64,000 nucleotides of DNA from Candidatus Nomurabacteria bacterium (GCA_003155695.1 PMDZ01000006.1:20007-84006), one strand, 5' to 3'. Shown: positions 5,367-62,161, counted from the first letter of the stretch. Notes: generated from the letters alone by a model not told the origin. Program-made: numbers and translations.

Positions 5367-7124
5367 ATGCATGTTGATGAAAAAGTAATTATAGACCTTC
5401 TCAATGATTCCGGATTAGTCACCAAAACAGATATTTCTGTCGCTCTTAAAAAATCTAAGGAAACCAACCAGCCACTCGGTTCGGTTTTGGTCAGTAACGG
5501 TAAATTGACCGAGAAAGACTGGAATAAAATTCAAGCGGTAGCTCTTGGCATTCCGTTCGTCAGTTTGGAAGGAGAGAAGATTGACCCGAACGTTTTAACT
5601 TTGATTCCCGAGCCGATTGCTCGAAATAATAATATTATTGCTTACAAAAAAACCAGTATTGGTTTGGAAGTGGCTATGCTTGATGTCGAGAACCTTCCGG
5701 TTATAGATTTTATTAAAAAGAAAGTTGGCACGCGCATTCTTCCCAGAATAACGAGCTCGGCTTCCATAAAAGAAGCCCTTAATCAATACAAGAAAAGTCT
5801 GCAAGCGGATTTTGAGGATATTATTAAAAAAGAAAGTAGCTCCATTAAGCCAGTAAAAGAAAGTGGCCCAGGTTCCGAAGAAAAATCTGAAAAAGAATTG
5901 AAAGAATTGGCCGAGGATTTGCCGATTGTTAAAATTGTAGACACTCTTATCTCGCACGCTATTACTCAAGGAGCTTCGGATATTCATATTGAACCGGAGG
6001 AAGAATCACTCATTGTTCGCTATCGTATTGACGGTATTTTGCATGATGCCATGGTACTACCCAAAGATACATCGTCAGGAATTGTCGCCCGTATTAAAGT
6101 CCTATCCAATCTAAAACTTGATGAGAAACGTCTTCCGCAAGATGGGCGTTTCAAAATCACAAACGACCAAGGCAATGTTTCTTTCCGTGTCTCGACTCTT
6201 CCGACATATTACGGCGAGAAAACTGTTATCAGAATTCTGCGGGAAAACGCCAAAGGTTTTTCTCTGGAAGGGCTTGGTTTCCACGGTGAAGCCCTGGAGA
6301 GAATCCATGACGGGATGAAAAAACGTACGGGCATGCTCCTTTGCGCCGGGCCGACCGGTTCCGGAAAGACGACAACCCTTTATACGATGCTCGATATTTT
6401 GAATACTCCTGATGTGAATATTTCAACCGTTGAAGACCCTATTGAATATCAAATGGCCAGAATTAATCAAACTCAGACGAAAGCGGAAATTGGGCTGACT
6501 TTCGCCAATGGTTTGCGTACACTACTACGTCAGGACCCTGATATAATCATGGTCGGAGAAATTCGTGACGGAGAAACAGCTTCGCTTGCCATAAATGCTT
6601 CACTCACCGGACATCTGGTTCTCTCGACTATTCACACTAACTCCGCGGCTGGAGCCATCCCTCGTATGATTGATATGGGGGTTGAACCATTCTTGATTGT
6701 TTCAACAGTTAAGACGGTTATTGCCCAGAGATTGGTCCGATTACTTGCAGAGGGGAAAGAAAAATATTTTTTAAGTGATATAGAAATGAAAGCCTTGGAA
6801 AAAGTGGTAGACCTCGACCGCGTTCTTGGATTTTTAAAATTGGAAAAAATTGTTGATGAGAATGCAACTTGGGACAAAATTCCATTTTATAAACCAAAAG
6901 GAAGCGAGGAATCAAAAGATGGCTTTAAGGGGCGTATCGGAATTCATGAAGTTCTTAAAGTGACAACGACTATTAAAGAAATGATTTTAAAGGGCTCGTC
7001 TGTAGATGAAACAGAAAAGATGGCAAAAAGTGAAGGAATGATGACAATGCTTGAAGATGGCATATTCTTGGCGGCCCAAGGTTTGACTTCGACGGAAGAA
7101 GTTCTTCGTGTTGTTTCGGAATAA
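5367..7124 (+). CDS. pilB: Type IV pilus assembly ATPase PilB (GspE family)
   Basis: An N-terminal T2SSE_N-like domain, the Walker A motif GPTGSGKTTTL, and the His/Asp boxes typical of GspE/PilB. The gene is followed by pilC. Confidence 0.9.
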   Translation: MHVDEKVIIDLLNDSGLVTKTDISVALKKSKETNQPLGSVLVSNGKLTEKDWNKIQAVALGIPFVSLEGEKIDPNVLTLIPEPIARNNNIIAYKKTSIGLEVAMLDVENLPVIDFIKKKVGTRILPRITSSASIKEALNQYKKSLQADFEDIIKKESSSIKPVKESGPGSEEKSEKELKELAEDLPIVKIVDTLISHAITQGASDIHIEPEEESLIVRYRIDGILHDAMVLPKDTSSGIVARIKVLSNLKLDEKRLPQDGRFKITNDQGNVSFRVSTLPTYYGEKTVIRILRENAKGFSLEGLGFHGEALERIHDGMKKRTGMLLCAGPTGSGKTTTLYTMLDILNTPDVNISTVEDPIEYQMARINQTQTKAEIGLTFANGLRTLLRQDPDIIMVGEIRDGETASLAINASLTGHLVLSTIHTNSAAGAIPRMIDMGVEPFLIVSTVKTVIAQRLVRLLAEGKEKYFLSDIEMKALEKVVDLDRVLGFLKLEKIVDENATWDKIPFYKPKGSEESKDGFKGRIGIHEVLKVTTTIKEMILKGSSVDETEKMAKSEGMMTMLEDGIFLAAQGLTSTEEVLRVVSE

Positions 7125-22387: not shown

Positions 22388-22633
22388 TTACTTTATAATT
22401 CCGGCTTTTTTCAGAACTTTATAGGCGCCTTTTTTGTTGATTGTTTTGATGGCCTTAGTTGAAATAGTGAGAGGGAAATATTTTTTGAGTTCTGGGACAT
22501 AAACCCTTTTCTTTTGCAGATTGGAATATTTACGAACATTACCGGTCGGATTGAATTTGGTAGCACGAACAACGTTGGAATATCCTCCCGCCATTATCGA
22601 ACCCTTTTTTGTTATGTCGCAAACTTTCGCCAT
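22388..22633 (-). CDS. rpmB: 50S ribosomal protein L28
   Basis: MAKVCDITKKGSIMAGGYSNVVRATKFNPTGN...ISTKAIKTINKKG fits the L28 pattern (MAKVC.ITGK...GN.VSH....T.R.F.PN). Confidence 0.75.
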   Translation of the reverse strand: MAKVCDITKKGSIMAGGYSNVVRATKFNPTGNVRKYSNLQKKRVYVPELKKYFPLTISTKAIKTINKKGAYKVLKKAGIIK

Positions 22634-48072: not shown

Positions 48073-48903
48073 ATGGATAATAAAAAAGACATACAACAGA
48101 CAAGCATAAATACTTATGGACAACCAAATGTCTCTGACAGTAAATCATTAGTGGACAGGCCTGTTTATGAGTTTATCAACAAAAAGACAGAAAAATTAGT
48201 TACTGCTCTCTATATGGTTACCGACTGCATGGATACCGACGATGCTCTCAAAGGGAAACTTCGTCAGTTAGGTGTAGAATTACTGTCCGATATGTATAAG
48301 CTTTCAACCTTATCCCCAATGGACAAATATACTCGTATTTCTTCCTCTCTTGCCCGTATTGATGAGATACTTTCTTTCATTGAGATTACTTACACAATTG
48401 GTTTTATTTCGGAAATGAATACCGTCATTTTGAAGAAAGAGTTCACAATTTTAATAGAGGAGCTAGAATCTCACCAAAAAGAAAACAAGCATTTCACATT
48501 TACCTTAGACGAGAAGATATTTGATTTACCGGAACTTCAAATCGCAGGGAAAGATTCAGATTACAAAGGGCAATCATTTATAAAGGACAAAAGGACATCT
48601 TTTAATAGTATGTCCTTTATGGATAATAAAAGTCCTTTACAAAAATCCCAACCTAAAAGGACAATATCTCACGAATCAAATTTTGCCGATAGGCAAGAGA
48701 GGACGAATAAGATATTAGCTCTTATAAAAGAAAAGAAGGACTTGCCTACTGGAGAAGTAGGAGTTTCGATAAAAGACATCTCTCTTTCTTTTACAGACTG
48801 CTCGGAAAAGACAATTCAACGCGAACTGAACTCACTTGTCCAGAAAGGTCAACTCAAGAAAACCGGGGCTAAACGCTGGTCGCGATACTCTATTGTTATT
48901 TAA
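48073..48903 (+). CDS. Hypothetical protein with a C-terminal winged-helix-like DNA-binding region
   Basis: A 276-aa protein. The C-terminus ...LPTGEVGVSIKDISLSFTDCSEKTIQRELNSLVQKGQLKKTGAKRWSRYSIV resembles wHTH recognition-helix/wing patterns. The N-terminal domain is unrecognised. Confidence 0.35.
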   Translation: MDNKKDIQQTSINTYGQPNVSDSKSLVDRPVYEFINKKTEKLVTALYMVTDCMDTDDALKGKLRQLGVELLSDMYKLSTLSPMDKYTRISSSLARIDEILSFIEITYTIGFISEMNTVILKKEFTILIEELESHQKENKHFTFTLDEKIFDLPELQIAGKDSDYKGQSFIKDKRTSFNSMSFMDNKSPLQKSQPKRTISHESNFADRQERTNKILALIKEKKDLPTGEVGVSIKDISLSFTDCSEKTIQRELNSLVQKGQLKKTGAKRWSRYSIVI

Positions 48904-49013
48904 AAAAGACGACAATATTATTGTTTTGTGACGACGGGTGGGGGCGTGCCGTTCCGAGGTAACCCGAGGAATGGGGTTAAGGAGGAATAAAACAATAATA
49001 TTGTCGTCTTTTT
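48903..49013. repeat. 25-bp perfect inverted repeat (AAAAAGACGACAATATTATTGTTTT) enclosing a GC-rich 61-nt loop, starting at the stop codon of the preceding gene
   Basis: Arms at 48903..48927 and 48989..49013. The loop reads gtgacgacgggtgggggcgtgccgttccgaggtaacccgaggaatggggttaaggaggaat, roughly 62% GC in a roughly 35% GC genome. Confidence 0.7.
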
Positions 49014-49328
49014 CTGTTTTAGGCTATTTCAAGGAAACCCTTATATTCCCAGTTATCCACACCTTTTGGTCAAATCCTATGTATCTATTGCATATTATAA
49101 ACCTGGAGTATATAATATCTGTGTATATTGTTGCTGGTATTTTTTTACCATATGTGATAATATATAGTATCCCTGTGTACTTGTTTCTAATAAGCGCATT
49201 TGGGAAGAGAAGATCATTGAAAATAAAATACCTCTATATTCTAATACCAAGAAGGTAGTGGCCGTTTCGTTTTCACTGGTCGGATCCGTTTTGTTTCTTT
49301 TCAATTTTATTTTTCCTCAATCGCCCGA

Positions 49329-49700
49329 TTGATAGAGATTGGGTGAGTCTTACTTTGATAGAGGTGAGATTATCCCGTTGATAGAGACGGGTGATAAAAG
49401 AAAAATAAAAATAAAGATTTCAAAATGTGGTATCGGCCCTGTCGACAAGGCAGATATGCTTGTCTCGTCTTTTCTTTACTCTCTCGAAAAGAGATTCTTA
49501 AGAAGGGTAAAGGCAGGCAGTGTTTTTTAGTTTAGTTATTCAAGTAATTTATTTTTTGATACTTATTCCGTCATCATTTTTTTGATAGAGAAATTGTGGA
49601 GGGAAGAGAATAAAATAAATTATGAGATGGAAGGTTTATGTTTGTTATTTTACGGTTTTGAATTTTGTTACTTTTTCCATCGCAACTTTTTTGATAGAGA
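49329..49700 (+). promoter_or_regulatory. Five direct copies of TTGATAGAG in the roughly 960-bp noncoding region upstream of the S-layer-like gene
   Basis: Three copies lie at 26- and 23-bp spacing (49329, 49355, 49378), each followed by a GGTGA-containing tail. Further copies are at 49581 and 49692, each preceded by a T-run. They fall in different codon phases of any overlapping ORF, so they are nucleic-acid-level repeats. Confidence 0.5.
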
Positions 49701-49865
49701 GAAGTTATGGTTCAAGTTTCAGAATTTGGAAATTCAGTAAAAAAAGATTATTAATTATTAATTTCAATTCTTAATTATTAATCAAATACACACACATTAG
49801 TTTTTTTCCGGAGCACACAATTCATTATCAGTCGTCTTCCGGAATTAGTCGAAGCTAATCTAAAC

Positions 49866-51752
49866 GTGTATAAAATTATAAAGATTATGTTAAAAAAATT
49901 TTTAATCGGAGCAATAGCAGTAATAGCTTTTGGTGTTGTTATGCACACAGCTATGGCCGCTCTTGATTTCGGTCCTACAACTTTAAAAGTAGGTAGTACA
50001 GGAGTATTCGTAAGCACACTTCAGCAATTTGTTGGAGCAACAGCTGACGGATCTTTCGGTCCTATGACGAAAGCAAAGGTTATGGCATGGCAAGCAACAA
50101 ACGGCTTAACAGCTGATGGCGTGTTTGGTCCATTGTCAAAAGCTAAAGCTAACGCAACAGTTGGAACATATCCATCAGGTTGTTCGTCAACATTGGGTTA
50201 CAGCACAACAACCGGTTTACCATGTACAACAGCAGGAAATTATCCGGCAGGCTGTACTTCAGAAGTAGGATACTCTCCTACAACCGGAGCAAAGTGTGAT
50301 AGTTCAACAACTGGTGGTGGTTCCTCAGGTGGAGCTCTATCCGGTGGTGCAGGGGATGCAACTTTAACTCACTATTCAACCAGTGAGAAAAGTAAAATAA
50401 AAGAAGGAGATTCAGACGTTAAAGTTCTTGGCTTCAGAGTTGAAGCTTCAGATTCTGACATTGCTGTAAACAATGTTAAAGTTAAAATCGAAAACACTGA
50501 TGCACCTTCTTCTTCGTACAAAATCACAAAATACTTAGATTCAGTGGATATCTACCAAGGTTCAACAAAGGTTGGATCGGCAGATGCTGCTGACTTTACA
50601 AAAGCATCAGATGATTCTTACTCAAAATCAATTGCAGTTTCAAATGCAGTTGTTAGAGATGGGGACAAGGATCCTTTCTATGTAGTATTCAATGCTGTAG
50701 ATAGTATTGATTCAGAAAACTCTACTGCAAGTCTTACAGTAGGTGTAGAATCATTCCGCTTTACAGATGGATCAGGAGTTGTTACAACAGCAACACCCGA
50801 TCCAGCAGTTTCTAATGTAGTTACATTAGATGATTCATCAGATGTTCTAACTCTAAAGTCATCTTCAAATAATCCTGATGATGTAACTGTTACAGTTGAT
50901 GAAAACAATACTACAGATGAAGTATTAGCTCTTGCATTCAAATTGAAGGCAGGTTCTGATTCTTCAGATATCACACTTGATAAACTTCCAATTACTCTTG
51001 AAATAGCTGGTGCTGGAGCATCGGTTACTTCTTCAGAAAAAGTTATTGATTCTGTAGTTGTTAAGTTAGATGGTAAGGAAATCACAGCTGATGCTACTAA
51101 TACATCAATTAATAACGCAGGGTCAGATACAGCTCTATATACAGCTGACCTTTCAAATGAGGATATTACTATTGCTCAAGATGATACCCTTGAAGCAAAA
51201 GTTTATATAACTTTTGTTGAACAGGGTGGAACAGGTTCTGGTAAGAACTATACAGATGGCTCAACAGTTGTTACTGCTCATATAACAGGTACTGCTATTA
51301 CAGCAGAAAGTGCTAATGATGATACTATCAGTCCAACATCTGGTACACAAACAGGTGCTGCACTTACACTAAGTACATCTTCAATTACTTTGTCTGGTAT
51401 GAGTTGGACAACAACTTCAGGTTCATCTACTGGTACACTTGACTTCTACTTCTCATTAGAAGCTGGTGATAATGATGTTGAAAATCTTACAATAAGTGAT
51501 GTTGTTACATCAGAAAATACAACTAATGCTGGTGGTAAAGCAGCTGGTGATGCAGCAGGAGTTCTTACAAAGATATCTGGTGATGCAACAACAAACTCAA
51601 CAGGTAACTTTACAATCTCATCAGGTGATACTGCTAACTTCAGAATTAGATATACCACAACAGTTTCTGGTTCAGAAGTTCAGATTAAAACAATTAAAGG
51701 ACAAACAGTTCCTGATAACAAGCAATTGTCAGGTACATTTATTGCTCAATAA
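49866..51752 (+). CDS. Secreted cell-surface protein with an N-terminal peptidoglycan-binding (PG_binding_1-like) domain, Cys-pair repeats and a long S/T/D/A/V-rich beta region (S-layer-like)
   Basis: A signal peptide, then LKVGSTGVFVSTLQQFVGATADGSFGPMTKAKVMAWQATNGLTADGVFGPLSKAKA (a PGBD pattern), then three repeats YP(S/A)GC..(L/V)GYS.TTG..C, then about 450 aa of low-charge T/S/D/V-rich sequence. The gene has its own strong terminator. Confidence 0.6.
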   Translation: MYKIIKIMLKKFLIGAIAVIAFGVVMHTAMAALDFGPTTLKVGSTGVFVSTLQQFVGATADGSFGPMTKAKVMAWQATNGLTADGVFGPLSKAKANATVGTYPSGCSSTLGYSTTTGLPCTTAGNYPAGCTSEVGYSPTTGAKCDSSTTGGGSSGGALSGGAGDATLTHYSTSEKSKIKEGDSDVKVLGFRVEASDSDIAVNNVKVKIENTDAPSSSYKITKYLDSVDIYQGSTKVGSADAADFTKASDDSYSKSIAVSNAVVRDGDKDPFYVVFNAVDSIDSENSTASLTVGVESFRFTDGSGVVTTATPDPAVSNVVTLDDSSDVLTLKSSSNNPDDVTVTVDENNTTDEVLALAFKLKAGSDSSDITLDKLPITLEIAGAGASVTSSEKVIDSVVVKLDGKEITADATNTSINNAGSDTALYTADLSNEDITIAQDDTLEAKVYITFVEQGGTGSGKNYTDGSTVVTAHITGTAITAESANDDTISPTSGTQTGAALTLSTSSITLSGMSWTTTSGSSTGTLDFYFSLEAGDNDVENLTISDVVTSENTTNAGGKAAGDAAGVLTKISGDATTNSTGNFTISSGDTANFRIRYTTTVSGSEVQIKTIKGQTVPDNKQLSGTFIAQ

Positions 51753-51794
51753 TTGTATAACTAAATCTGGTTGATACGCCTTAAAATGTATTCA

Positions 51795-51825
51795 AAAAAC
51801 CACTCATTATATGAGTGGTTTTTTG
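51795..51825 (+). terminator. Rho-independent terminator of the S-layer-like gene
   Basis: aaaaaCCACTCATtatATGAGTGGtttttt. Confidence 0.85.
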
Positions 51826-51885
51826 TTATTTGAAAAGCTCCATTTCGTATAGATATTTTGTTCTTTTTCGGTTATACTCTTTAAT

Positions 51886-53904
51886 ATGGTGAAGGTAAAA
51901 GAGCAAATACTTTGGCAATGGAAGTGGATAGAATACTTGGCCTATGCTATTGTTTTTATCACCCCTCTTTATTTTAGTACAAATCATTGGTTTTCGTTTA
52001 ATTCCCCGAAGACGCTCGCTATTTCTTTTGGAGTTTTGTCTATGACTATATTGTATGCTTGGGGAGTTATTGTCTCAAAGAAATTTTCTATAAAAGTTAC
52101 CCCACTTCACATTGTATTAGGAGTTTTTCTTGTCATTCTTACTATCAGTTCTATTTTGGGAGTGGATGCGCATAATTCATTTTTTGGGACTTTTAGTTTT
52201 CCGACCAACTTAATTTTTATTTATATAGTATCTTTGTTCGCTATTTTTATCGGATTTTTGATTCATAGAGATAAACAATTTTTACCAAAAATAATTTTAA
52301 CATCTTTTCTTAGTAGTATCATTGTGGCTTTTTTCTCATATACAGGGACTTCAATTTTTAAAATATTTACTGATTATAGTTCGACAATAGGGAATAGTTC
52401 ATATGCCGGGGCTTATCTCTTGTTCAATATTTGCTTTGGAATTGGCTTATTCTCATATTATAAAAAATGTTGGAAGAAGATATTAATAGCGATTTCAACT
52501 CTTTTTATTATTTTTTGCCCGCTATTCTTCAATATAGATATTTTTTCCGGGAAAATTGCATTATCGGATATTTTACACAATCCGCTTTTGCTCGCAGGTG
52601 TTGCAAATGGGGCAGCTCTGGGTGTAATTTTTTCCATTATAATCATTGCTTGTTTTTATCTCTTATTATCTTGTAAGAAGCCAATTAAAATTATTGGAGT
52701 TGTTTTATTTTTAGGATTTCTTTTGGGAACTGTTTATACTGGTTATATTTTTTTGAATCCAACCTCGAAGATTCATAATATATATTCTGAAGTAAAAGGT
52801 GATAATAGATTTATAGCTTGGGATATTGCTGAGAGAGGTTTGATGGATAGACCGCTACTCGGTTCCGGATTTAATAACTTTTATTACACATATCAAAAAT
52901 ATTTTAGAGCGGATATTTATAAAGAAGATATTGAATTTTTCCTCCAACCGCATAATGTTGTTTTTGAGTATGCATCAAATAATGGTATTTTAGGATTAGT
53001 TTCTTTTCTCTCGTTGTTATTTTTTACTTTTCTCGCATTGTTTAAGTATAGAGAAGATGAAGACGGAGAATATAGAATGTTTAGAATCTCTATAATTGGT
53101 ATTTTATTCGGATATTTTATTCAAAATTTATTTGGTTTTGATACAGTTACCTCTTACCTGATGCTTTTCTTGGTTGTTGGGATTGCGATAGGACTATCTT
53201 ACAAAAACCGGGATATTGCATTTACCGACAAATCGGAAATAATAAAAAAAATAATTTCTGTAATTATAATACTTGGGAGCCTAGTTTCTATTGTTTTATT
53301 TGTTGTATTGCCATGGAAAGAATCTTTAAAATGGAGACATTTTAACCAGGAGACAAGACTTCAGGAGCTTAGCATATTGAGACAAGGGTTGCAGGAGACC
53401 TCTCTTTTCGGAGGAGTAGGAGATAGTACTTATGAAGCAATTAAATTATATAATTTTTATATAGCAAATGTGGATAAAATAAATGATTCGAATAGAATGT
53501 CTTTTCTTGATGAAATTGATTCTATTGTCGGGCAAATAGAAAAAGACCAACTGTCTCAACCAGATGATTTTCGGGCTTATCTTGTCATAGGGAAGTTATT
53601 GAGTCTAAAAATATATATTATGGGGAGGGTCGATGAGAGTGTTTGGGGAAAAGCGAATTTTTATCTGGATAAAACACTCAGCATTGTTAATTACCAAAAC
53701 CCTGAAGCTTTCTTGGCAAAGGCACAATTATATATTTTCAAAAATGACTATGTCCAAGCTCGTTTATATACCCAAAAAGCAATATCGTTAATTCCAAACT
53801 ACAAAGATTCATATGAAATAGCAAAAAAAATTCAAGCCTTGAGCTCCGATAAAGATTTCCAGAAATACATAGATAATATGCAAAAAATCTGGCTTATAAA
53901 ATAA
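51886..53904 (+). CDS. Wzy_C-domain (O-antigen ligase / O-oligosaccharyltransferase-like) polytopic membrane protein with C-terminal TPR repeats
   Basis: About 12 TM helices with the Wzy_C signature region ...RPLLGSGFNNFYYTYQKYF...QPHNVVFEYASNNGILGLVSFL. The C-terminus AFLAKAQLYIFKNDYVQARLYTQKAISLIPNYKDSYEIAKKI is TPR-like. Confidence 0.7.
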   Translation: MVKVKEQILWQWKWIEYLAYAIVFITPLYFSTNHWFSFNSPKTLAISFGVLSMTILYAWGVIVSKKFSIKVTPLHIVLGVFLVILTISSILGVDAHNSFFGTFSFPTNLIFIYIVSLFAIFIGFLIHRDKQFLPKIILTSFLSSIIVAFFSYTGTSIFKIFTDYSSTIGNSSYAGAYLLFNICFGIGLFSYYKKCWKKILIAISTLFIIFCPLFFNIDIFSGKIALSDILHNPLLLAGVANGAALGVIFSIIIIACFYLLLSCKKPIKIIGVVLFLGFLLGTVYTGYIFLNPTSKIHNIYSEVKGDNRFIAWDIAERGLMDRPLLGSGFNNFYYTYQKYFRADIYKEDIEFFLQPHNVVFEYASNNGILGLVSFLSLLFFTFLALFKYREDEDGEYRMFRISIIGILFGYFIQNLFGFDTVTSYLMLFLVVGIAIGLSYKNRDIAFTDKSEIIKKIISVIIILGSLVSIVLFVVLPWKESLKWRHFNQETRLQELSILRQGLQETSLFGGVGDSTYEAIKLYNFYIANVDKINDSNRMSFLDEIDSIVGQIEKDQLSQPDDFRAYLVIGKLLSLKIYIMGRVDESVWGKANFYLDKTLSIVNYQNPEAFLAKAQLYIFKNDYVQARLYTQKAISLIPNYKDSYEIAKKIQALSSDKDFQKYIDNMQKIWLIK

Positions 53905-53932
53905 TTATTAAAATAAATGTTATAATTAGGAT

Positions 53933-54817
53933 ATGAAAATAATAGTCACAGGCGGAGCGGGGTTTATTGGGAGCCATATTGTGGATACTCTTATTAACGG
54001 GGGATACGAAGTCCATGTTGTGGATAACTTATCGGCTGGGAAAAAGGAAAATGTGAACCCAAAGGCAACTCTACATGTAGTGGATATCCGAGATAAAGAT
54101 GCCCTCATTCCGATTTTTAAGGATGCCAAATACGTCTTCCACGAAGCAGCTTTCCCCCAAGTAGAGTATTCTATCCAAAATCCAATAGAGACAAATGATA
54201 TCAATGTGAATGGAACGTTGAATGTCTTGGAGGTTTCAAAAATAAATAAAGTCAGAAGAGTTATCTTTGCCTCTTCGTGCGCTGTCTATGGTGACCAAGA
54301 GAAAATGCCAATGGTTGAGGATATGGCTGTTTATCCACTTTCTCCTTATGCTGTCCATAAGCATATTGGGGAAATATATATGAAATTATATTCAGAAATT
54401 TATAATCTGGAGACTGTTTGTCTTCGGTATTTTAATGTCTATGGTCCACGCCAATCTGTGAATGGCTCATATCCACTTGTCATAGCCAAATTTTTAGACC
54501 TGAAAAAACAAAATAAGCCGCTTATGATAGTCGGAACCGGTGAGAATACTCGCGATTATGTCAATGTTCGAGATATTGTCCGGGCAAACATATTGGCGAT
54601 GAAAGGTGATAAGGTTGGAAAAGGAGAAGTTATAAATATTGGTACCGGCAAACAATATTCTGTTAACCAAATTGCCGAAATCATCGGTGGTCCGACAGAG
54701 CACATTCCTCCGCGAATTGAACCTCGTTGCGCGGAAGCTGGCATTACAAAAGCCAAAGAGCTTCTTGATTGGGAGCCGAGTGTGAGTTTAGAGGAGGGGA
54801 TAAATACTTTGCTTTAG
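53933..54817 (+). CDS. NAD-dependent sugar-nucleotide epimerase/dehydratase (GalE/WbpP-like SDR)
   Basis: MKIIVTGGAGFIGSH Rossmann fold and the YxxxK catalytic motif (YAVHKHIGE). Confidence 0.85.
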   Translation: MKIIVTGGAGFIGSHIVDTLINGGYEVHVVDNLSAGKKENVNPKATLHVVDIRDKDALIPIFKDAKYVFHEAAFPQVEYSIQNPIETNDINVNGTLNVLEVSKINKVRRVIFASSCAVYGDQEKMPMVEDMAVYPLSPYAVHKHIGEIYMKLYSEIYNLETVCLRYFNVYGPRQSVNGSYPLVIAKFLDLKKQNKPLMIVGTGENTRDYVNVRDIVRANILAMKGDKVGKGEVINIGTGKQYSVNQIAEIIGGPTEHIPPRIEPRCAEAGITKAKELLDWEPSVSLEEGINTLL

Positions 54818-54847
54818 GCCTTATTAATTAAAATATAAAGTTGTTAT

Positions 54848-55603
54848 ATGGATAATATTTTAGAAGAAGAAAAAAAATTTCAAGATTCGAAAGTCACAAG
54901 CAGTGTTCGTGCTGGGTATTATGCTTTCTATAAAGATAACAAAGAAACATTAGCTCATATTAATAATCATTTAAATGGAGTTTCCGGGAAAATTCTTGTT
55001 TTGGGATGTGGAGATGTGGATATTACCTTGCTTTCCAAATACAAATTCAACCAAATTGTTGGAATCGATATTTCTCCCGAATCGGTGAAAAAAATAAATT
55101 TATTCATAAAAAATAAAGGGTTGGGCGACAAAATAAAATGTTTTGTTATGGATGCCCATAATTTGGAGTTTAGTGATAAAGAATTCGATATAATCTTCGG
55201 AACTGGTATTTTGCATCATTTAAACATTGAAAAGGCCTCAGAAGAAATGAGGAGAGTATTAAAAGATAACGGCGAAATAATTTTTATGGAACCACTGGGA
55301 ATAAATCCAGTGCTAAATTGGCATCGCAAAAGAACACCGGAAGCAAGAACTGAATTTGAACACCCACTTCGCTCCAAAGACTTCAAGACAATAAAAAAAT
55401 ATTTTTCAATAAGCACAAAAGGGTTTTATCTATTTACAATCCTAAGTTTTGGATTCAAAACTATTATTAAATCTGATTTTCTTTATAAAATAAGTCGATT
55501 AGCACTTTCAGGCTTGGACATGTTATTATTATCTGTACTACCCTTAGATTACTTATGTTGGATTACAATCATTGAAGGTAAAAAAAGAAATTTAACTGTC
55601 TGA
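54848..55603 (+). CDS. Class I SAM-dependent methyltransferase
   Basis: ILVLGCGDVD motif I, GIDISPES, and a hydrophobic C-terminal tail. Confidence 0.65.
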   Translation: MDNILEEEKKFQDSKVTSSVRAGYYAFYKDNKETLAHINNHLNGVSGKILVLGCGDVDITLLSKYKFNQIVGIDISPESVKKINLFIKNKGLGDKIKCFVMDAHNLEFSDKEFDIIFGTGILHHLNIEKASEEMRRVLKDNGEIIFMEPLGINPVLNWHRKRTPEARTEFEHPLRSKDFKTIKKYFSISTKGFYLFTILSFGFKTIIKSDFLYKISRLALSGLDMLLLSVLPLDYLCWITIIEGKKRNLTV

Positions 55604-55621
55604 TGAGTCAGCAAAATAATT

Positions 55622-56554
55622 ATGGAAATAAGTGAAGAAAAAAGAAAGGAACTGATATCTCAACTTGACAGACTTTCAAAAAGAGCGTTTGAATACTTAA
55701 GATTTTTAGGCGCTGGCTTTATAAAAAAAATAATGAGAATGATCTCCTCTCCACGAATATTTTTTGAAAATATTTTCTGGCGCTTACGAGTGAAAATATC
55801 AGGATGCAAAAGTGAAATCCCTGTCACGTTTTTCTTTGGCAGAAAAATCCTTTTGGATATAAGAGACCGTGATGCCCTTGACCTCAAGCTGTTCGGTCTT
55901 TTGCCGGCCGACGAAGAATGCTCACTCACGAAATATTTTATAATGAATTTAAAGTCAAACGACGTATTTTACGATATCGGCGCGAACTGGGGTTTCTATT
56001 CTTATCTTGCCGTCATATTTTGCAATGAAGTACATGTTTTCGAACCTTTGCCAAATATAGCGAAACTTTTGGAAAAAAATTTAAGCGGTGACGCAAAAGT
56101 AACTTTCAATAACATTGCCATATCCGACAAAAAAGGGAGTTCTGAAATCTATATCAGTGAAAGTTCAGGAAGAAGTACGATTAACAAAGAATCTGTCGAG
56201 ATGAATGGGGGAAAAAACATGGGGAAAATTATTATTCAAACAACAACTTTGGATGAATATGTCCTGGGGAAAAATCTTCCGACAATCATCAAGATGGATG
56301 TGGAAGGAGCGGAATATATGGTAATCAAAGGGGGTATTGATATCTTTTCAAAACACAATCCGATTATTGCTTTAGAGGTATGGTCATCCTCTTTTGGAGG
56401 ATCAATTTCGATGAAAGCGGTAGAATTGCTGAGAGAAATGGGGTATACTTCATATAGAATAACGGATAAGAGCACGCTTGAAGGAATAAAAGGAGATCTA
56501 TCTTTGTCGATAGGACAAGGAAGAAATTGTGAAAACTTCATTTTTAAAAAATAA
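55622..56554 (+). CDS. FkbM-family methyltransferase
   Basis: YDIGANWGFYS...LDEYVLGKNLPTIIKMDVEGAEYMVIKGG, the Methyltransf_21/FkbM signature. Confidence 0.8.
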   Translation: MEISEEKRKELISQLDRLSKRAFEYLRFLGAGFIKKIMRMISSPRIFFENIFWRLRVKISGCKSEIPVTFFFGRKILLDIRDRDALDLKLFGLLPADEECSLTKYFIMNLKSNDVFYDIGANWGFYSYLAVIFCNEVHVFEPLPNIAKLLEKNLSGDAKVTFNNIAISDKKGSSEIYISESSGRSTINKESVEMNGGKNMGKIIIQTTTLDEYVLGKNLPTIIKMDVEGAEYMVIKGGIDIFSKHNPIIALEVWSSSFGGSISMKAVELLREMGYTSYRITDKSTLEGIKGDLSLSIGQGRNCENFIFKK

Positions 56555-56590
56555 TGTTCATATTTACAATTATTAACAAAAAGTGTATCA

Positions 56591-57649
56591 ATGAATAACC
56601 AAGAAAAAAAAATTAAAATAGGAATAGTGGGTGCCGGCTGGGTGGCGAATAATCGACATATTCCGGCTTTTAAGTCCGACCGACGATGCAGTATCGTGGC
56701 AATATACGATACAACACTAGAAAAAGCGGAAAAAACGGCAAAAAAGTACAAAATAAAAAATATATTTTCTGATTATAATTCGTTTTTAAATTCGGAAATA
56801 GATGCTGTTGTGGTCTGTACTCCGCCAATGTGTCATGCCAGTGTGGCCAAGGAAGCGCTTCTTCGAAATAAACACGTGCTGGTAGAAAAACCATTTTCTC
56901 TCACTATCGCTGATGGAAAAGAAATTGAAAATATTGCAAAAAGCAATGGTTTAATACTTTTTCCGGGACATAATTTCCTTTTTTCTAGAGCAATGTTAAA
57001 AATAAAAGAAGAACTAAAAAAACCGGACACAGGTGATATTTTGCATGTATCCGGATATCAGTGGAGCAGTTGGATGCGTCATCTTCCGACTTGGTTTCCA
57101 GAATTACCCGGCGGCTTATTCTTTGATGAAGGTCCTCATTTTATGTATTTGATGAAATATCTTGTGGGAGATTTTTCCGTAACTTCCGCAACATATACCA
57201 AAAAAGAAGCTGGGATGAAAAGACCGTTTGAAAATTATGTGGTCTCGGTAAAGGGAGAAAGGGCAACTGGAGATTTTTCGATGTTTTTCGGGTCGCCAAT
57301 GTCCGAATGGTTAATTGTCATAATGTGTCAGAAAAAGACACTTGTTTATGATATGTTCAGGGACTTTTACTTTACATTTAACCCCGAGCTAAAAAGAACT
57401 CGCATGTATCCAATAAGTGTTGTTGCATCCTTTGACAGACAGGTTTGGAAACAATATATAAAGTGGATATTCAGAAGATACGCCATATTTAAGCGGCACT
57501 TATATGGTGCCGATGTAATCGCAAGAAAATTTTTGGACGCAATCACAGGAAAAAGCGAACCAATTTTACACCCGTCAGATGGATATCAAGCTGTCGAAAA
57601 AATTATTGAAATAATTAAAAAATCAGGAACGAATTTATATGAAGTCTGA
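56591..57649 (+). CDS. Gfo/Idh/MocA-family NAD(P)-dependent oxidoreductase (sugar-nucleotide dehydrogenase-like)
   Basis: IKIGIVGAGWVANNRHIPAF N-terminal Rossmann fold and the EKP motif (VLVEKPFSLT). Confidence 0.8.
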   Translation: MNNQEKKIKIGIVGAGWVANNRHIPAFKSDRRCSIVAIYDTTLEKAEKTAKKYKIKNIFSDYNSFLNSEIDAVVVCTPPMCHASVAKEALLRNKHVLVEKPFSLTIADGKEIENIAKSNGLILFPGHNFLFSRAMLKIKEELKKPDTGDILHVSGYQWSSWMRHLPTWFPELPGGLFFDEGPHFMYLMKYLVGDFSVTSATYTKKEAGMKRPFENYVVSVKGERATGDFSMFFGSPMSEWLIVIMCQKKTLVYDMFRDFYFTFNPELKRTRMYPISVVASFDRQVWKQYIKWIFRRYAIFKRHLYGADVIARKFLDAITGKSEPILHPSDGYQAVEKIIEIIKKSGTNLYEV

Positions 57650-58745
57650 AGTAGTTTTTTTTACTCATACACTAGAGGGGGGAGTCGGCAGAGTTACCAT
57701 GCAGTTGGCTGAAGGTTTTTTAAACGAGGGTGTTTCTTCGGAAGTTTGGACACAAGAGAACACAGATTTGTCTCCATCGTTTGCTTCAGTTAAAATTTTT
57801 TCTTTTAACAAAAAAAAGGCTCGCCAACTTTTTTTTCTTCTATTAAAAAAGATTAATGAAGATAAACCGAGAGTGATAATTTCATCAACATTCTATACCA
57901 ATATTATTGCTATAATATCGTCACTACTCTCTCATCGTAAAGTCAAAGTAATTGTTATCGAACATATTGCTGTTAAGTCTGAATTCAAAAACTTGGGTCT
58001 ATTAAAAAAATTAATCATGCGCGTCTTGATATTCTTTTTTTATCGTCTTGCCTATTCGGTCGTAACAGTGTCCGATGAATCCGGCGATATTCTAAGTAGA
58101 TTCTGCCTTTTACCACGAAAAAAAATTATTACTATATACAACCCTGTTATTTCTAAAGATTTATACGAAAAATCAAATACTCCAATAAACCACCCTTTTT
58201 TTAACTTAGGTCATCCAATTCTTCTTAATGTAGGAAGGCTAGATAAGCAGAAAGATATTGGCACACTCCTCGAGGCGTTTTCTATAGTAACGAAAGAAAT
58301 TGAAAGCCGCCTTATTATAATTGGAGAAGGAAATGGAAAAACACAATTAATAGAACAATGCAAAAAATTAAAAATTCTTAATCAGGTGGATTTTGCTGGG
58401 TATTTGAAAAATCCCTATCCTTTTTTCAAAAAATCTAGCGTGTTTGCCCTTTCTTCACTATATGAAGGTCTGCCAACTGTTCTTATTGAGGCCTTGGCTT
58501 TGCGACTTCCCATTGTCAGCACAAAATGTCCATCAGGTCCGGCAGAAATACTCCAGCAAGGAAAATACGGGATTCTTGTACCTATTAAAGATCCGAAATC
58601 TCTCGCACAAGGAGTTTTGAATCTTTTGAAAAATAAAAATATTATTCATGAACCACCGGAAGAATATCTAGACCCGTATACTCAAAAGTATTCTGTTCAC
58701 CGTTATCTTTCAATTATTCATAATATTAATAAAAAAAATGATTAA
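57639..58745 (+). CDS. Glycosyltransferase family 4 (GT-B, Glycos_transf_1)
   Basis: LLNVGRLDKQKDIGTLLEAF...FALSSLYEGLPTVLIEALALRLPIVSTKCPSGPAEIL (the EX7E region). Confidence 0.85.
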   Translation: MKSEVVFFTHTLEGGVGRVTMQLAEGFLNEGVSSEVWTQENTDLSPSFASVKIFSFNKKKARQLFFLLLKKINEDKPRVIISSTFYTNIIAIISSLLSHRKVKVIVIEHIAVKSEFKNLGLLKKLIMRVLIFFFYRLAYSVVTVSDESGDILSRFCLLPRKKIITIYNPVISKDLYEKSNTPINHPFFNLGHPILLNVGRLDKQKDIGTLLEAFSIVTKEIESRLIIIGEGNGKTQLIEQCKKLKILNQVDFAGYLKNPYPFFKKSSVFALSSLYEGLPTVLIEALALRLPIVSTKCPSGPAEILQQGKYGILVPIKDPKSLAQGVLNLLKNKNIIHEPPEEYLDPYTQKYSVHRYLSIIHNINKKND

Positions 58746-60012
58746 AACAATGTTAAATAAAATATCAAAAGAAATCGACTACTGTTTAATAGGAATTCTG
58801 TTTTTATGCATGTATTTTACCGGGCCCTTATATCAAGTAAATCTGATTGGGATAAAGATTTTACCATTTGATTTTGCCATTGTTGGAATAACAATTTTTG
58901 TAATTCTGAGAATGCTTAAAGAAAAAACTTTGAAATACAATATAATTTCATTTCCTAAGATATTACTGATTTCTTTCTGTTTATTCGCCACAATGATGTC
59001 ATTGGACATATTGAGAGTACCGGCACATTTATCAGTCTTGACCCTTCTTATTGCAACTATTCGAAATTTCGTATTCTCTTGGATAATAATTAATCTGGTT
59101 TTGCGTACTAAGATTAATCAAGAGCAAATCATGAGTTTAGTTACATGCATAACTACTGCCGTTTCATTTGTTAGTATAATTGCATATTTTATCTATTCTA
59201 TCTCGTTAGCTAAAATTCAAATGATGCCTTCTTTATGGCATCTTGGTATTTGGTATTATTTAAGCGAAGGAAAATTCTTGAGATTGTCTGGACTTGCAAG
59301 CGATCCCAATTTTTTTATCGCAGTTAGCATCGTGGGATTTATTTTTTCCCTCTTACTTTTCAATAAGAATAATTTACAGAAGATTATGTCGTTTATTATA
59401 TTCATTGCGCTTGTTCTTACTATTTCAAAAATTTTTCTAGTGTTGCTTGTTGGGTCATTCATGGGTTTGTTGGCGATTTATATAATAAAAAAACAAAAAT
59501 ATATTTTGGATATCCTACGAAACTTTTTAACGATCGTTATTATATCGTCGGTTGTTCTGCTGATTATTGGTATCATGTTCCCGAAAGTAAATGTGTATAA
59601 AATGTATACATCAAGAATATCCACTGAAGTAGCTTATACAAATAACCCAGAAGCAATTGACACTCGCTCGAGTTTGTGGAAGGTAGGATATGAAACTTAT
59701 TTGGAACACCCGGTTACTGGTTCCGGTGGCAAAGCTATACTCTTCAAAAGAGGTATGTATGTTCATAATGATTATCTGGAAATGATGAGTTCCTATGGCA
59801 TAATTGGCTTGATGATCTTACTCTTCTTCCTTTTTTCCAATCTATTTGTATCCTTTAAATATTTATACAGTAGATTGTTGCTGGCACCATTCCTCTCAAT
59901 TTTTTGTTATGTTGGTTTTATGATGGGTTTTTCAGTGTTTTTCAATCCATATTTTTTCTTTCCTCTCGGAATAATGTGGTCGCAAATTATTCTGTTAAAA
60001 AAACAAGAATAA
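58738..60012 (+). CDS. O-antigen polymerase/ligase-family (Wzy-like) polytopic membrane protein
   Basis: About 10-12 TM helices with a Wzy_C-like loop ...HPVTGSGGKAILFKRGMYVHNDYLEMMSSYGIIGLMILLFF. Confidence 0.7.
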   Translation: MIKTMLNKISKEIDYCLIGILFLCMYFTGPLYQVNLIGIKILPFDFAIVGITIFVILRMLKEKTLKYNIISFPKILLISFCLFATMMSLDILRVPAHLSVLTLLIATIRNFVFSWIIINLVLRTKINQEQIMSLVTCITTAVSFVSIIAYFIYSISLAKIQMMPSLWHLGIWYYLSEGKFLRLSGLASDPNFFIAVSIVGFIFSLLLFNKNNLQKIMSFIIFIALVLTISKIFLVLLVGSFMGLLAIYIIKKQKYILDILRNFLTIVIISSVVLLIIGIMFPKVNVYKMYTSRISTEVAYTNNPEAIDTRSSLWKVGYETYLEHPVTGSGGKAILFKRGMYVHNDYLEMMSSYGIIGLMILLFFLFSNLFVSFKYLYSRLLLAPFLSIFCYVGFMMGFSVFFNPYFFFPLGIMWSQIILLKKQE

Positions 60013-60041
60013 TCAGTTAACTTGCCAAAATTAGATTTAAG

Positions 60042-60932
60042 ATGATGATTTCAGTAATAATAATTACATACAGAAGAAAGGAGGAAATCCTGAAATGTTT
60101 AGAATCAATCGTATCACAGGACTATAATAATTATGAAATTATTCTTATCGATAATAACAAGGAAGAACATTTTTCCGAATATATTCTAAATCATGCAAAA
60201 GATGTACCTCGATTAAAATATATCAAAAATAATTTTAATTCTTCGGTTACAGGAGGGAGAAATCTGGGTGTTTTGCATGCCTCGGGAGATATTTGTGTTT
60301 TTATCGATGATGACGCGTTTTTTGAAAAAAATAATGCATTAACCTTAACTTCCGAAAAAATGAATAGAGAAAAAGATGTGGGGGTTTTAGCTTATAAAAT
60401 AATAAATTATTCGAGTAAAAATGTTGAGCGCAAAGAATTCCCATTTAAGAACAAAAAGATCGATAAAAATACTGAAACTGAAGCCTCATACTTCTTGGGA
60501 GGAGCACATGCAATACGTAGGAATGTCTTTGGTTTAGTAGAAGGATACCCGGAAGATTTTATATATGGAATGGAAGAATTGGATATTTCATTCAGAATTT
60601 TGGATAAGGGTTTTAAAATATTGTATTTCCCTTGTGTTATCGCATGGCACAACCCGTCCATATCGGGAAGACTTGAAAAAAAATCTTACTGGAAAAACAT
60701 TTTGGAAAATAGACTAAAGGTTGGAATCCGGAATCTTCCATGGAGGTATTTTGCGATTAATTTTATCATATGGTCTCTGAAGGTGCTGAAAGAATCCAAG
60801 AACATAATGGTGCTGATTGAAACATATAGTTCTCTTCTCAGAAACAGGAAAGAGATTCAGAAGGGAAGAAAAGTCATTTCGAACAAGACAATTAAAAAAT
60901 TAAAATTAATTGATAATAGGTTATATTATTAA
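60042..60932 (+). CDS. Glycosyltransferase family 2
   Basis: MISVIIITYRRKEEILKCLESIVSQDY..YEIILIDN and a DDD motif (FIDDDAFF). Confidence 0.85.
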   Translation: MMISVIIITYRRKEEILKCLESIVSQDYNNYEIILIDNNKEEHFSEYILNHAKDVPRLKYIKNNFNSSVTGGRNLGVLHASGDICVFIDDDAFFEKNNALTLTSEKMNREKDVGVLAYKIINYSSKNVERKEFPFKNKKIDKNTETEASYFLGGAHAIRRNVFGLVEGYPEDFIYGMEELDISFRILDKGFKILYFPCVIAWHNPSISGRLEKKSYWKNILENRLKVGIRNLPWRYFAINFIIWSLKVLKESKNIMVLIETYSSLLRNRKEIQKGRKVISNKTIKKLKLIDNRLYY

Positions 60933-60934
60933 AA

Positions 60935-62161
60935 ATGACAAAAAGAAAAAAAATACTGATTTCATTGTTCAGATTTCCTTATCCAGCAAGTGATGGTACT
61001 CGAAATAAAATTCTAAAAAGTGTGATTGAAGGACTTGCTACTGATTTTGATCTTGAGTTTTTTATTGTTTCAACTGAAAAAATTGAGCCCAAAAATGTTG
61101 AATATTTTAAGAACAAATACGGCAAAATCCATTTATTTAAGCATTCGAAATTCGAAATGGTATTAAGGGCATTTTGTGCTCTATTCTCAAAACTACCGAT
61201 TCAAGCGCGTGTGTACATATATGAAGATGCAAAGAAATGGCTAAGAAAAAACATCAATTCATTTGATGCATTATATGTTCACGAAATACGTCTTACCGAA
61301 TATTTAACAGATATTAACTTCGATAAAAATAAAATAGTAATCGACCTGAACGATGCAATATCTTTAAATTATAGTTCTTCTTTGGTTAATATCGGATATT
61401 TTAAAAAATTATTTTATTCTTTCGAATTTAAAAGAGTTAGAGATTATGAGGAAAAAATTGTTAATTCATTTAAACATTTTGTTACGGTGTCGGAATATGA
61501 CAGAAATTATCTGTTAAAATTTAATAAAAATAATTCACTAATACATTTTGTCTGTATTAGACTCGGTTTTGCAGTCTCTGAAAATTTTTATCGAGAAAAG
61601 GCGTCCGACCACAATATTTATTTTATCGGCAATTTGAATTATGAACCTAATCGTGATTGTATTTATTTCTTGTTACAACAAATTTTGCCGGAAGCAAAAA
61701 AAATAATTCCTGATCTTTCTTTATATATAATAGGAGGAGGTAATATTCCGAAGAAATTCTTTAGCCTTCCTGGTGTGATATTTACCGGGTTTGTTAATGA
61801 TCCTCTTCCAGTAATTGAAAAATGTAGCGCACTTATCGCACCCATCCGCTTCAACGGGGGAGTTCCTTCAAAAATTTTAGAATCCATGTCATACGGTATT
61901 CCCGTGGTGACATCCAAAGAAGCGGTTAATGGTATCGTTGATCTTAAAAATCACGAAAATATAATTTTATGCAATATTACCGATGTACATGCTTGGTGCC
62001 TGTCATTAAAAGAAATATTATTCAACTCTGAATTAAGAAACAAAATAGGGGTAAATGCTAAAGTATTCATAAATGAAAATTATTCTATATATAAAAGTCA
62101 ACAGGAATTTCGTAATTTGTTCCATGAAATTATATTGAGGAAAGAACCCTTTTCCAGCTAA
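60935..62161 (+). CDS. Glycosyltransferase family 4-like (GT-B)
   Basis: A C-terminal GT1/GT4 domain: IYFIGNLNYEPNRD...APIRFNGGVPSKILESMSYGIPVVTS. Confidence 0.75.
   Translation: MTKRKKILISLFRFPYPASDGTRNKILKSVIEGLATDFDLEFFIVSTEKIEPKNVEYFKNKYGKIHLFKHSKFEMVLRAFCALFSKLPIQARVYIYEDAKKWLRKNINSFDALYVHEIRLTEYLTDINFDKNKIVIDLNDAISLNYSSSLVNIGYFKKLFYSFEFKRVRDYEEKIVNSFKHFVTVSEYDRNYLLKFNKNNSLIHFVCIRLGFAVSENFYREKASDHNIYFIGNLNYEPNRDCIYFLLQQILPEAKKIIPDLSLYIIGGGNIPKKFFSLPGVIFTGFVNDPLPVIEKCSALIAPIRFNGGVPSKILESMSYGIPVVTSKEAVNGIVDLKNHENIILCNITDVHAWCLSLKEILFNSELRNKIGVNAKVFINENYSIYKSQQEFRNLFHEIILRKEPFSS

Follow-up and report, generated by a model that had tools for sequence, protein, structure and literature searches.

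GAUAGA-loop RNA hairpins upstream of a surface-protein gene in Nomurabacteria and related Paceibacteria: probable docking sites for an RNA-binding factor

Main finding

The 9-mer TTGATAGAG, which occurs five times in the window (the whole 64-kb stretch of Candidatus Nomurabacteria DNA analysed here), very probably marks in each case the apex of an RNA hairpin carrying a GAUAGA hexaloop. Since the copies are conserved hairpin loops in the leader of a surface-protein gene, we read them as docking sites for an RNA-binding factor, and not as the array of DNA operators proposed in a preliminary description of the sequence. We put the probability of this whole explanation at about 0.6. The features on which the argument draws are the following.

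48073..48903 (+), upstream gene, 276-aa protein with a predicted four-helix bundle, disordered linker and C-terminal winged helix
49053..49061 (+), conserved TTATCCACA box, near the upstream side of the -35 element
49088..49116 (+), conserved promoter of sigma-70 type, TTGCAT-17-TATAAT
49123..49886 (+), predicted structured 5' leader RNA of about 765 nt, promoter to start codon
49212..49224 (+), invariant GAUCAUUGAAAAU block in the 5' part of the leader
49300..49415 (+), hairpin cluster with a U-rich/A-rich outer stem and two alternative folds
49322..49345 (+), hairpin 1, CGCCCGAUU-GAUAGA-GAUUGGGUG, U·G-closed, -13.8 kcal/mol
49346..49371 (+), hairpin 2, AGUCUUACUUU-GAUA-GAGGUGAGAUU, motif at the apex
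49374..49391 (+), hairpin 3, CCCGUU-GAUAGA-GACGGG, -10.4 kcal/mol with outer pairs, 31.8 bits
49432..49455 (+), near-invariant core hairpin, AUCGGCCCUG-UCGA-CAAGGCAGAU
49458..49518 (+), hairpin of variable length closed by GCUUGUCU/AGGCAGGC, with lineage-dependent stem sequences
49567..49604 (+), hairpin 4, UUGAUAGAG loop, GGAGG in the 3' arm, 29.3 bits
49677..49710 (+), hairpin 5, UUGAUAGAG loop, 29.5 bits
49786..49871 (+), start-proximal module of nested helices P1 (AUACAC/GUGUAU), P2 and P3, with compensatory changes
49887..51752 (+), downstream gene, secreted PG_binding_1 surface protein of 621 aa, ATG at 49887

The repeats in the window and in related genomes

The copies of TTGATAGAG start at 49329, 49355, 49378, 49582 and 49691, all on the plus strand. 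These five fall within 370 bp, at distances of 26, 23, 204 and 109 bp from one to the next, and no further copy is present on either strand of the 64-kb window, compared to 0.52 +/- 0.66 copies expected under a dinucleotide-preserving null, with none of 100 shuffles reaching five. The five direct repeats of the preliminary description are thus real and far above chance, while the positions it gave for the last two (49581 and 49692) are each off by one, the T-runs having been counted in. The GGTGA tails it noted are likewise present, as ATTGGGTGA, (G)GTGAG and ACGGGTGA, and represent the G-rich 3' strands of hairpin stems; the T-runs that accompany the motif in the window lie on its 5' side, where they form the other stem strand. 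All copies are located in the 983-bp gap between the 276-aa ORF (48073-48903) and the gene for the PG_binding_1 protein. Their start positions modulo 3 are 0, 2, 1, 1 and 2, so that every codon phase is used, and no conserved ORF runs over them, in agreement with the earlier view that this is a nucleic-acid signal and not a coding one.

The motif is conserved in relatives, so the 9-mer is not one that occurs at the frequency set by base composition or that related genomes lack, the finding that would have spoken against it. The exact 9-mer is present in one to five copies per equivalent gap in relatives, down to approximately 42% protein identity, and some 190 related Paceibacteria loci contain zero to seven copies each of the motif UUGAUAGAGR; the strand is in every case that of the downstream gene. 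An independent sample of 111 loci, drawn from metagenomes with the invariant 23-nt core of the gap as query, gives zero to seven same-strand GATAGAG copies per leader (mode two to four) and a single opposite-strand copy in total, with the sequence at background outside the leader (49 copies in the remainder of about 750 kb). The association of the motif with its two flanking genes also stands, as the synteny in relatives demonstrates: the 276-aa gene is found upstream in 74 of the 74 informative loci, and a surface-protein homologue is found downstream in 64 of 72. One locus, L044, presents an inversion, as a result of which the surface-protein gene precedes the 276-aa gene and diverges from it; the motifs have moved with the surface-protein gene and are still upstream of it and co-oriented.

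Spacing is another matter. The 23-26-bp interval between the first three copies holds for this genome and its closest relatives and not elsewhere, adjacent copies in relatives being 13 to more than 100 bp apart (142 spacings of at most 100 bp, ranging from 13 to 98 bp, and a further 133 exceeding 100 bp), and no 10.5-bp helical phasing of the copies is detected across leaders (R = 0.09). The GAUAGA hairpins flank the core hairpin on both sides, from -180 to -20 and from +90 to +320. Such variability in copy number and position around a fixed core fits modular binding sites better than a fixed tertiary fold. Copies 4 and 5 are found at the ends of two versions of a 66-nt unit (49526-49591 and 49635-49700), which are 109 bp apart and 71% identical; most relatives possess a single hairpin at this position, and hairpins 4 and 5, to judge from these units, go back to a segment of about 109 bp that was duplicated in tandem in this lineage.

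The repeats as loops of RNA hairpins

The GAUAGA hexaloop is closed by a U·G pair, the next pair is U-A/G, and the stem, of 5-13 bp, is of arbitrary sequence. The flanks of the motif are mutually complementary, yet wholly different in sequence among copies and species (CGCCCGAU/AUUGGGUG, AUAUUGGU/ACCAGUAU, UAGCAGU/ACUGUUA and UUUGC/GCAAA are examples). Covariation was counted over 129 distinct instances aligned on the motif, with an 11-pair stem and a six-base loop. The score for the stem is 0.403, a value not reached in any of 500 shuffles, versus 0.228 +/- 0.013 for shuffled partners, and 275 stem cells are changed on both sides, versus 139 expected. The score peaks at register 0, the inner positions show all six pair types, and the closing U·G pair is present in 129 of the 129 instances. 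G·U accounts for roughly one third of the paired cells (by a tally of the per-pair table), and the mean folding energy is -7.9 kcal/mol for the plus strand, versus -4.2 for the reverse complement and -3.8 for shuffled flanks. Complementary, covarying flanks with abundant G·U make sense only as RNA of the plus strand.

From a larger set of 351 distinct instances, the consensus UUGAUAGAGR is obtained; U occupies position -1 in 89% and position -2 in 86% of them, a purine follows the motif in 96%, and the median enclosing stem is 7 bp. Stems of at least 5 bp are found for 70% of the real sequences versus 45% of the shuffled ones, the latter reflecting the U-rich 5' and purine-rich 3' composition alone; therefore about 30% of the leader GAUAGAG copies are without a clear stem, and these include a second, apparently single-stranded GAUAGAG located 21 nt 3' of a hairpin. 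As the loop is invariant, covariation at the level of the loop does not distinguish protein recognition from RNA-RNA contacts.

Matches to a covariance model of the hairpins are confined, in the window, to 49314-49715 on the plus strand; weak matches at 22431, 90 and 239 (E > 0.3) were discarded, as no GAUAGA was seen there on inspection. In 394 kb of related loci, the same model gives 107 matches in 47 loci, every one of them within the leader and in the orientation of the gene. In the loci of distant homologues, it recognizes nothing significant, and neither k-mer counting nor the covariance model reveals a variant loop motif there. REP/MITE-like palindromes were also considered and rejected: the copies are confined to one leader, both in the 64-kb window and in the 394 kb of related loci, and the combination of a conserved loop with variable stems is the opposite of what REP and MITE elements present.

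The first three copies can be folded in two ways. One is a cloverleaf (49300-49415, -38.3 kcal/mol), in which the outer U/A stem encloses three GAUAGA-tipped hairpins; the other is a rod (-44.5 kcal/mol), with copy 2 apical and copies 1 and 3 opposed in internal loops. In 12 close relatives, the stems of hairpins 1, 2 and 3 of the cloverleaf are paired in 99%, 92% and 100% of cells, respectively, and the rod is 98% paired; for the closest relatives, RNAalifold favours the rod over separate hairpins. One relative possesses a C28U change along with G-to-A changes at both alternative partners, a single event, which hints at a conformational switch. In three relatives, the middle stem (hairpin 2) is kept without the GAUAGAG loop. 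In other lineages, the hairpins stand alone, which points to the display of the loop as the conserved feature.

The leader and its other modules

When ten related gaps are aligned, no conservation is seen directly after the 276-aa gene, and then there is a sharp onset at TTATCC(A/C)CA, followed by TTGCAT, 17 nt, TATAAT and further blocks up to the start codon. The 5' end of the leader is accordingly placed from the promoter and its 3' end at the start codon, for which the choice of the gene callers on identical public contigs (ATG 49887) was adopted; conservation suggests that leader and gene are transcribed together. With hairpins and conserved blocks continuing to the start codon, and with no canonical terminator found between the hairpins and the gene, the whole stretch is best read as one 5' leader. 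Among the hairpins themselves, only hairpin 1 weakly fits the consensus of an intrinsic terminator (1 found, 0.5 expected). The RNA from the presumed start at about 49123 to 49895 has a minimum free energy of -210 kcal/mol (z = -8.8).

The TTATCCACA box together with a -10-like element is present in 67 of 81 loci (the window counted), and these include distant relatives that lack the hairpins. The box is a candidate DNA site for the neighbouring winged-helix protein or for DnaA. In the window and in loci L007-L086, it is a perfect DnaA-box-like 9-mer, located 0-20 bp upstream of the -35 element. An oriC or DnaA-box cluster was nevertheless rejected as an explanation for the region, with a single box and no switch in GC skew, and so was the reading of TTGATA as a promoter -35 element, with weak matches and no conserved -10 partner.

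Within the leader, each of 163 loci has a single GAUCAUUGAAAAU block, located here about 90 nt from the 5' end and across loci at a median of 77 nt after the -10 element; it may resemble the boxA of Gram-positive rRNA leaders. The 2.36 Mb of sequence searched for a comparison contained no rRNA leader. Rare variants of the core hairpin stay paired by way of U·G and U-A changes. The 111 metagenome contigs, which were retrieved with its 23-nt core, all carry that core unchanged, and it is thus more conserved than the flanking proteins. The sequence AUCGGCCCUGUCGACAAGGCAGAU at 49432-49455, 24 nt long and near-invariant, can be described as an imperfect palindrome or as a hairpin whose loop is UCGA.

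The start-proximal module is supported by pair counts of AU:18/GC:14, AU:20/GC:7/GU:5 and GC:15/AU:10/GU:7. It ends 15 nt short of the AUG, with a conserved UUAGUCGAAA segment, and no Shine-Dalgarno sequence is visible between the module and the AUG. The module may be a translational control element or an aptamer. A kissing interaction between the GAUAGA loops and a UUAUCAG loop of this module was considered and rejected, as not every lineage with hairpins conserves the UUAUCAG loop.

The downstream gene cluster

The label of major surface protein, given to the product of the downstream gene in the preliminary description, is plausible from the predicted signal peptide and the PG_binding_1 domain. 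The gene opens a series of ten envelope/glycan genes, co-directional and tightly spaced, which extends to 62161 (about 12 kb). The cluster (49887-62161) encodes the PG-binding protein, two Wzy_C proteins, an epimerase, two methyltransferases, an oxidoreductase and three glycosyltransferases, and probably represents one envelope-biogenesis operon. The gene order is kept in 80 loci of species-representative genomes, with recA, a Glucodextran_B-like gene and ftsK on the minus strand, and with the 276-aa gene, the long gap, the PG-binding protein gene and a Wzy-like gene on the plus strand.

This context brings in an explanation in which the hairpins require no bound partner and function as barriers to RNases or Rho, as folding modules or as loops making tertiary contacts, or else belong to a processive antitermination signal of the boxA type for the 12-kb envelope operon. 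A long untranslated leader would be exposed to Rho or RNases, and this one is extremely structured; it heads a 10-gene surface-glycan cluster, and surface-glycan operons are of a kind that uses antitermination of the RfaH, LoaP or EAR type; and the invariant GAUCAUUGAAAAU block may resemble the boxA of Gram-positive rrn operons. Mere stabilisers, however, need no 9-10-nt loop that stays invariant across genera while the stems drift, and a fixed tertiary fold would not range from zero to seven copies at shifting positions. We consider this explanation unlikely.

The 276-aa protein of the upstream gene

The preliminary description had placed a winged-helix-like domain at the end of the upstream gene product, and structure prediction bears this out. 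AlphaFold2, using a 21-sequence alignment, predicts a four-helix bundle (residues 31-140) that a disordered linker connects to a C-terminal winged helix. Foldseek relates the bundle to S23/23S-IVS proteins (2gsc, 2rld) and to the Avd protein of diversity-generating retroelements (DGR; 4dwl, 8ub7), and the C-terminus to winged helix-turn-helix (wHTH) domains of the BlaI/MecI/ArsR/Fur type. The protein has no match in Pfam or NCBIfam. Its homologues number more than 1,100, the named ones coming from Candidatus Paceibacterota/Nomurabacteria metagenome-assembled genomes (MAGs); all named or locus-checked homologues belong to Paceibacteria-type MAGs of the candidate phyla radiation (CPR), save for one contig binned as Bacteroides.

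The whole family shares an invariant recognition helix and wing (CSEKTIQRE ... G.KRWSRY), and this holds even for homologues of 33-40% identity that have no GAUAGA hairpins at the locus. What the window has in common with those hairpin-less loci is the TTATCCACA box and the promoter. An invariant winged helix in loci devoid of hairpins, along with a shared box, suggests that this domain reads the box or another shared feature and not the repeats, and the TTATCCACA box by the promoter appears to be its likelier target. Neither the N-terminal tail nor the linker motif of the protein correlates cleanly with the hairpins; some of the lineages with hairpins lack the conserved KDKRTSF motif of the linker.

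These data bear on the original proposal, of a winged-helix or response-regulator binding array, that is, of duplex-DNA operators bound cooperatively by the winged helix of the 48073-48903 product and regulating the downstream gene. The proposal has its attractions: the neighbour does possess a C-terminal wHTH domain and is strictly syntenic with the motif, three of the copies in the window are 23-26 bp apart, and the bundle resembles the pentameric Avd, so that an oligomer could occupy several sites. It is opposed by the spacing, which is neither conserved nor phased (13 to more than 100 bp, R = 0.09), by flanks whose G·U-rich covariation is meaningless for duplex DNA, by the position of the sites, 200-580 nt downstream of the conserved promoter (49329-49699 versus 49088-49116), by a recognition helix and wing that are identical in homologues without the motif at the locus, and by the existence of a better DNA target in the family-wide TTATCCACA promoter box. 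We therefore do not support the array interpretation and regard it as very improbable.

The same protein might instead bind the hairpins as RNA, forming a ribonucleoprotein with multiple sites and regulating its own expression. Its gene is upstream in every informative locus (74 of 74), its N-terminal fold is that of Avd and S23-IVS proteins, Avd being part of the RNA-containing DGR complex (8ub7, 4dwl), and the two to five copies would suit an oligomer. Winged helices are able to bind RNA hairpins, SelB and Roquin being examples. However, loci without the hairpins conserve the protein just as well, its KDKRTSF motif is missing in some lineages that have them, and the bundle looks rich in acidic residues by eye, unlike that of Avd. 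This autoregulatory reading is thus doubtful in our estimate, and the neighbouring four-helix-bundle/wHTH protein is a candidate for the factor that we propose, not a favoured one.

Proposed mode of action

In the preferred reading, of loops as docking sites, the leader would be transcribed from the 49088-49116 promoter up to the start codon of the surface protein, and its invariant loops would be bound multivalently by a trans-acting factor, for which an oligomeric RNA-binding protein is the likeliest candidate. The degree of occupancy would determine how stable the mRNA is, how well it is translated or how often the leader is read through, and thus the output of the surface-protein operon, placing the control after the initiation of transcription. 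The invariant 9-10-nt loop and closing pair, the drifting stems and the variable number and position of the hairpins suggest repeated recognition sites for a factor acting in trans. As the three clustered hairpins can refold into a rod that buries two of the loops, binding could also select a conformation. The GAUAGA loop resembles no recognition motif known to us, and the notion of protein binding is thus an argument by analogy, with precedents for repeated loop recognition in CsrA sites and in iron-responsive elements (IREs); we would give even odds to a protein being what binds the loops.

Many hairpins with one invariant loop motif, in variable number and at variable spacing, would also be expected of an independent sponge RNA of the CsrB/RsmZ type, titrating a global regulator with no action in cis. 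However, hairpins and gene have no terminator between them, covariation supports RNA structure up to 15 nt short of the AUG, the element is still co-oriented with the gene after the inversion in L044, and GGA is absent from the loops. Neither the rest of the 64 kb nor flanking sequence shows the motif, and thus no target regulon is visible. A sponge appears to us the most remote of the explanations considered.

A more ambitious extension of the docking-site reading, which we offer as speculation with a low probability, is that the hairpin array, the core hairpin and the start-proximal module together form an unrecognised riboregulator present throughout the Paceibacteria, in which an oligomeric protein captures several loops. 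Such a protein, possibly the adjacent Avd-like/wHTH one, would flip the leader between rod and cloverleaf, gating the surface-layer/glycan operon. If true, this would amount to a new RNA-protein control system in the CPR.

Comparison to known systems

Searched against Rfam 15, the 64 kb give nothing that reaches a gathering threshold; searches for tRNA and tmRNA were likewise negative, and a literature search on the GAUAGA motif and on structured RNAs of the CPR produced nothing relevant. In architecture, the closest parallels are to systems in which loops are recognized. The Csr/Rsm RNAs (CsrB, RsmY/Z) and the leaders bound by CsrA also combine arbitrary stems with one invariant short loop motif, their copy number and spacing also vary by species, and avidity for an oligomeric protein is the principle; they differ in that the loop here is UUGAUAGAG/GAUAGA and not A(N)GGA, and in that the element is in cis, in an mRNA leader; a CsrA was not identified in the 64 kb. 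Another example is the transferrin-receptor mRNA, with its five IRE hairpins, whose CAGUGN hexaloop is read by protein and controls the fate of the mRNA. Here too an invariant hexaloop is presented on covarying stems, about five per untranslated region of one mRNA, but IREs are eukaryotic, are located in the 3' UTR and possess another loop and a bulged C, making this an analogy of architecture only.

The lambda nut site (boxA plus boxB) and ANTAR targets are likewise leader hairpins recognised by their loops and controlling read-through, and the GAUCAUUGAAAAU block, which may resemble boxA, is present upstream in the same leader here. However, lambda boxB has a GNRA-like pentaloop and occurs once, whereas the GAUAGA hexaloop occurs in zero to seven copies, and ANTAR targets possess two hexaloops with A1 and G4 and overlap a terminator, whereas the positions here are G1 and A4, with no adjacent terminator. 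Leaders of S-layer and other surface proteins and the EAR element of the Bacillus eps operon share the arrangement of a long structured leader before the gene of an abundant envelope protein or a polysaccharide operon, but they are not known to have a repeated invariant loop motif, and the leader described here has no sequence or Rfam similarity to them. Overall, the GAUAGA hairpin fits the kind of element that is recognized by its loop and fails the defining sequence features of Csr, IRE and boxB elements; it is a new RNA motif.

Two resemblances of the motif at the DNA level were also considered. The 8-mer TGATAGAG is common to the motif and to the tetO half-site GTGATAGAGA. As no inverted partner is present, a TetR operator was rejected; tetO is an inverted repeat in duplex DNA, unlike the motif, with its one opposite-strand copy in 111 loci, and the resemblance is coincidental. 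Pairs of the form TTGATAGAG-N(8-38)-TTGATAGAG are found in at least 120 viral contigs, which is about the chance rate by a rough estimate of the size of the collection; both copies are in hairpins in only 3 of 120 of these contigs, none shares the gene context, and an origin from phage was rejected.

To our knowledge, almost nothing is known of gene regulation and non-coding RNA in the CPR. These bacteria are uncultivated, and the envelope is central to their episymbiotic lifestyle. A deeply conserved structured leader, of roughly 0.4-0.8 kb as estimated from block positions in related loci, heads their surface-protein/glycan cluster, and the hairpins, the promoter box and the candidate protein provide a testable entry point to the control of the CPR cell surface. 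The catalogue of bacterial cis-regulatory RNAs gains a loop-recognition motif.

Additional observations

Directly 3' of the stop codon of the 276-aa gene, at 48903-49013, a perfect 25-bp inverted repeat is present (AAAAAGACGACAATATTATTGTTTT and its complement), with a G+C-rich loop of 61 nt and flanks of A5 and T5. The aligned relatives lack this repeat, which may represent a terminator or a small insertion. A permissive Rfam search of 48700-50000 (E up to 10) gave chance miRNA-like matches on this repeat, which is unrelated to the hairpins. AT-rich repeats of the TTAATT(C/A)TTAATT type, variable in length, are located between the modules at 49746-49783 in the window and in the leaders of L007, L015, L021 and L026; they are also found upstream of the promoter in some relatives, and in the window they include an 18-nt AT-only palindrome. 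Finally, a hairpin-forming insert, GCCUCGUGGAAGCUUUGCUUCUUUACGAGG, is found at differing positions in the leaders of L016 (5357-5430, in two tandem copies), L011 (approximately 5565-5600), L034 (approximately 5380-5410), L026 and L015, and looks like a small mobile or duplicating hairpin.
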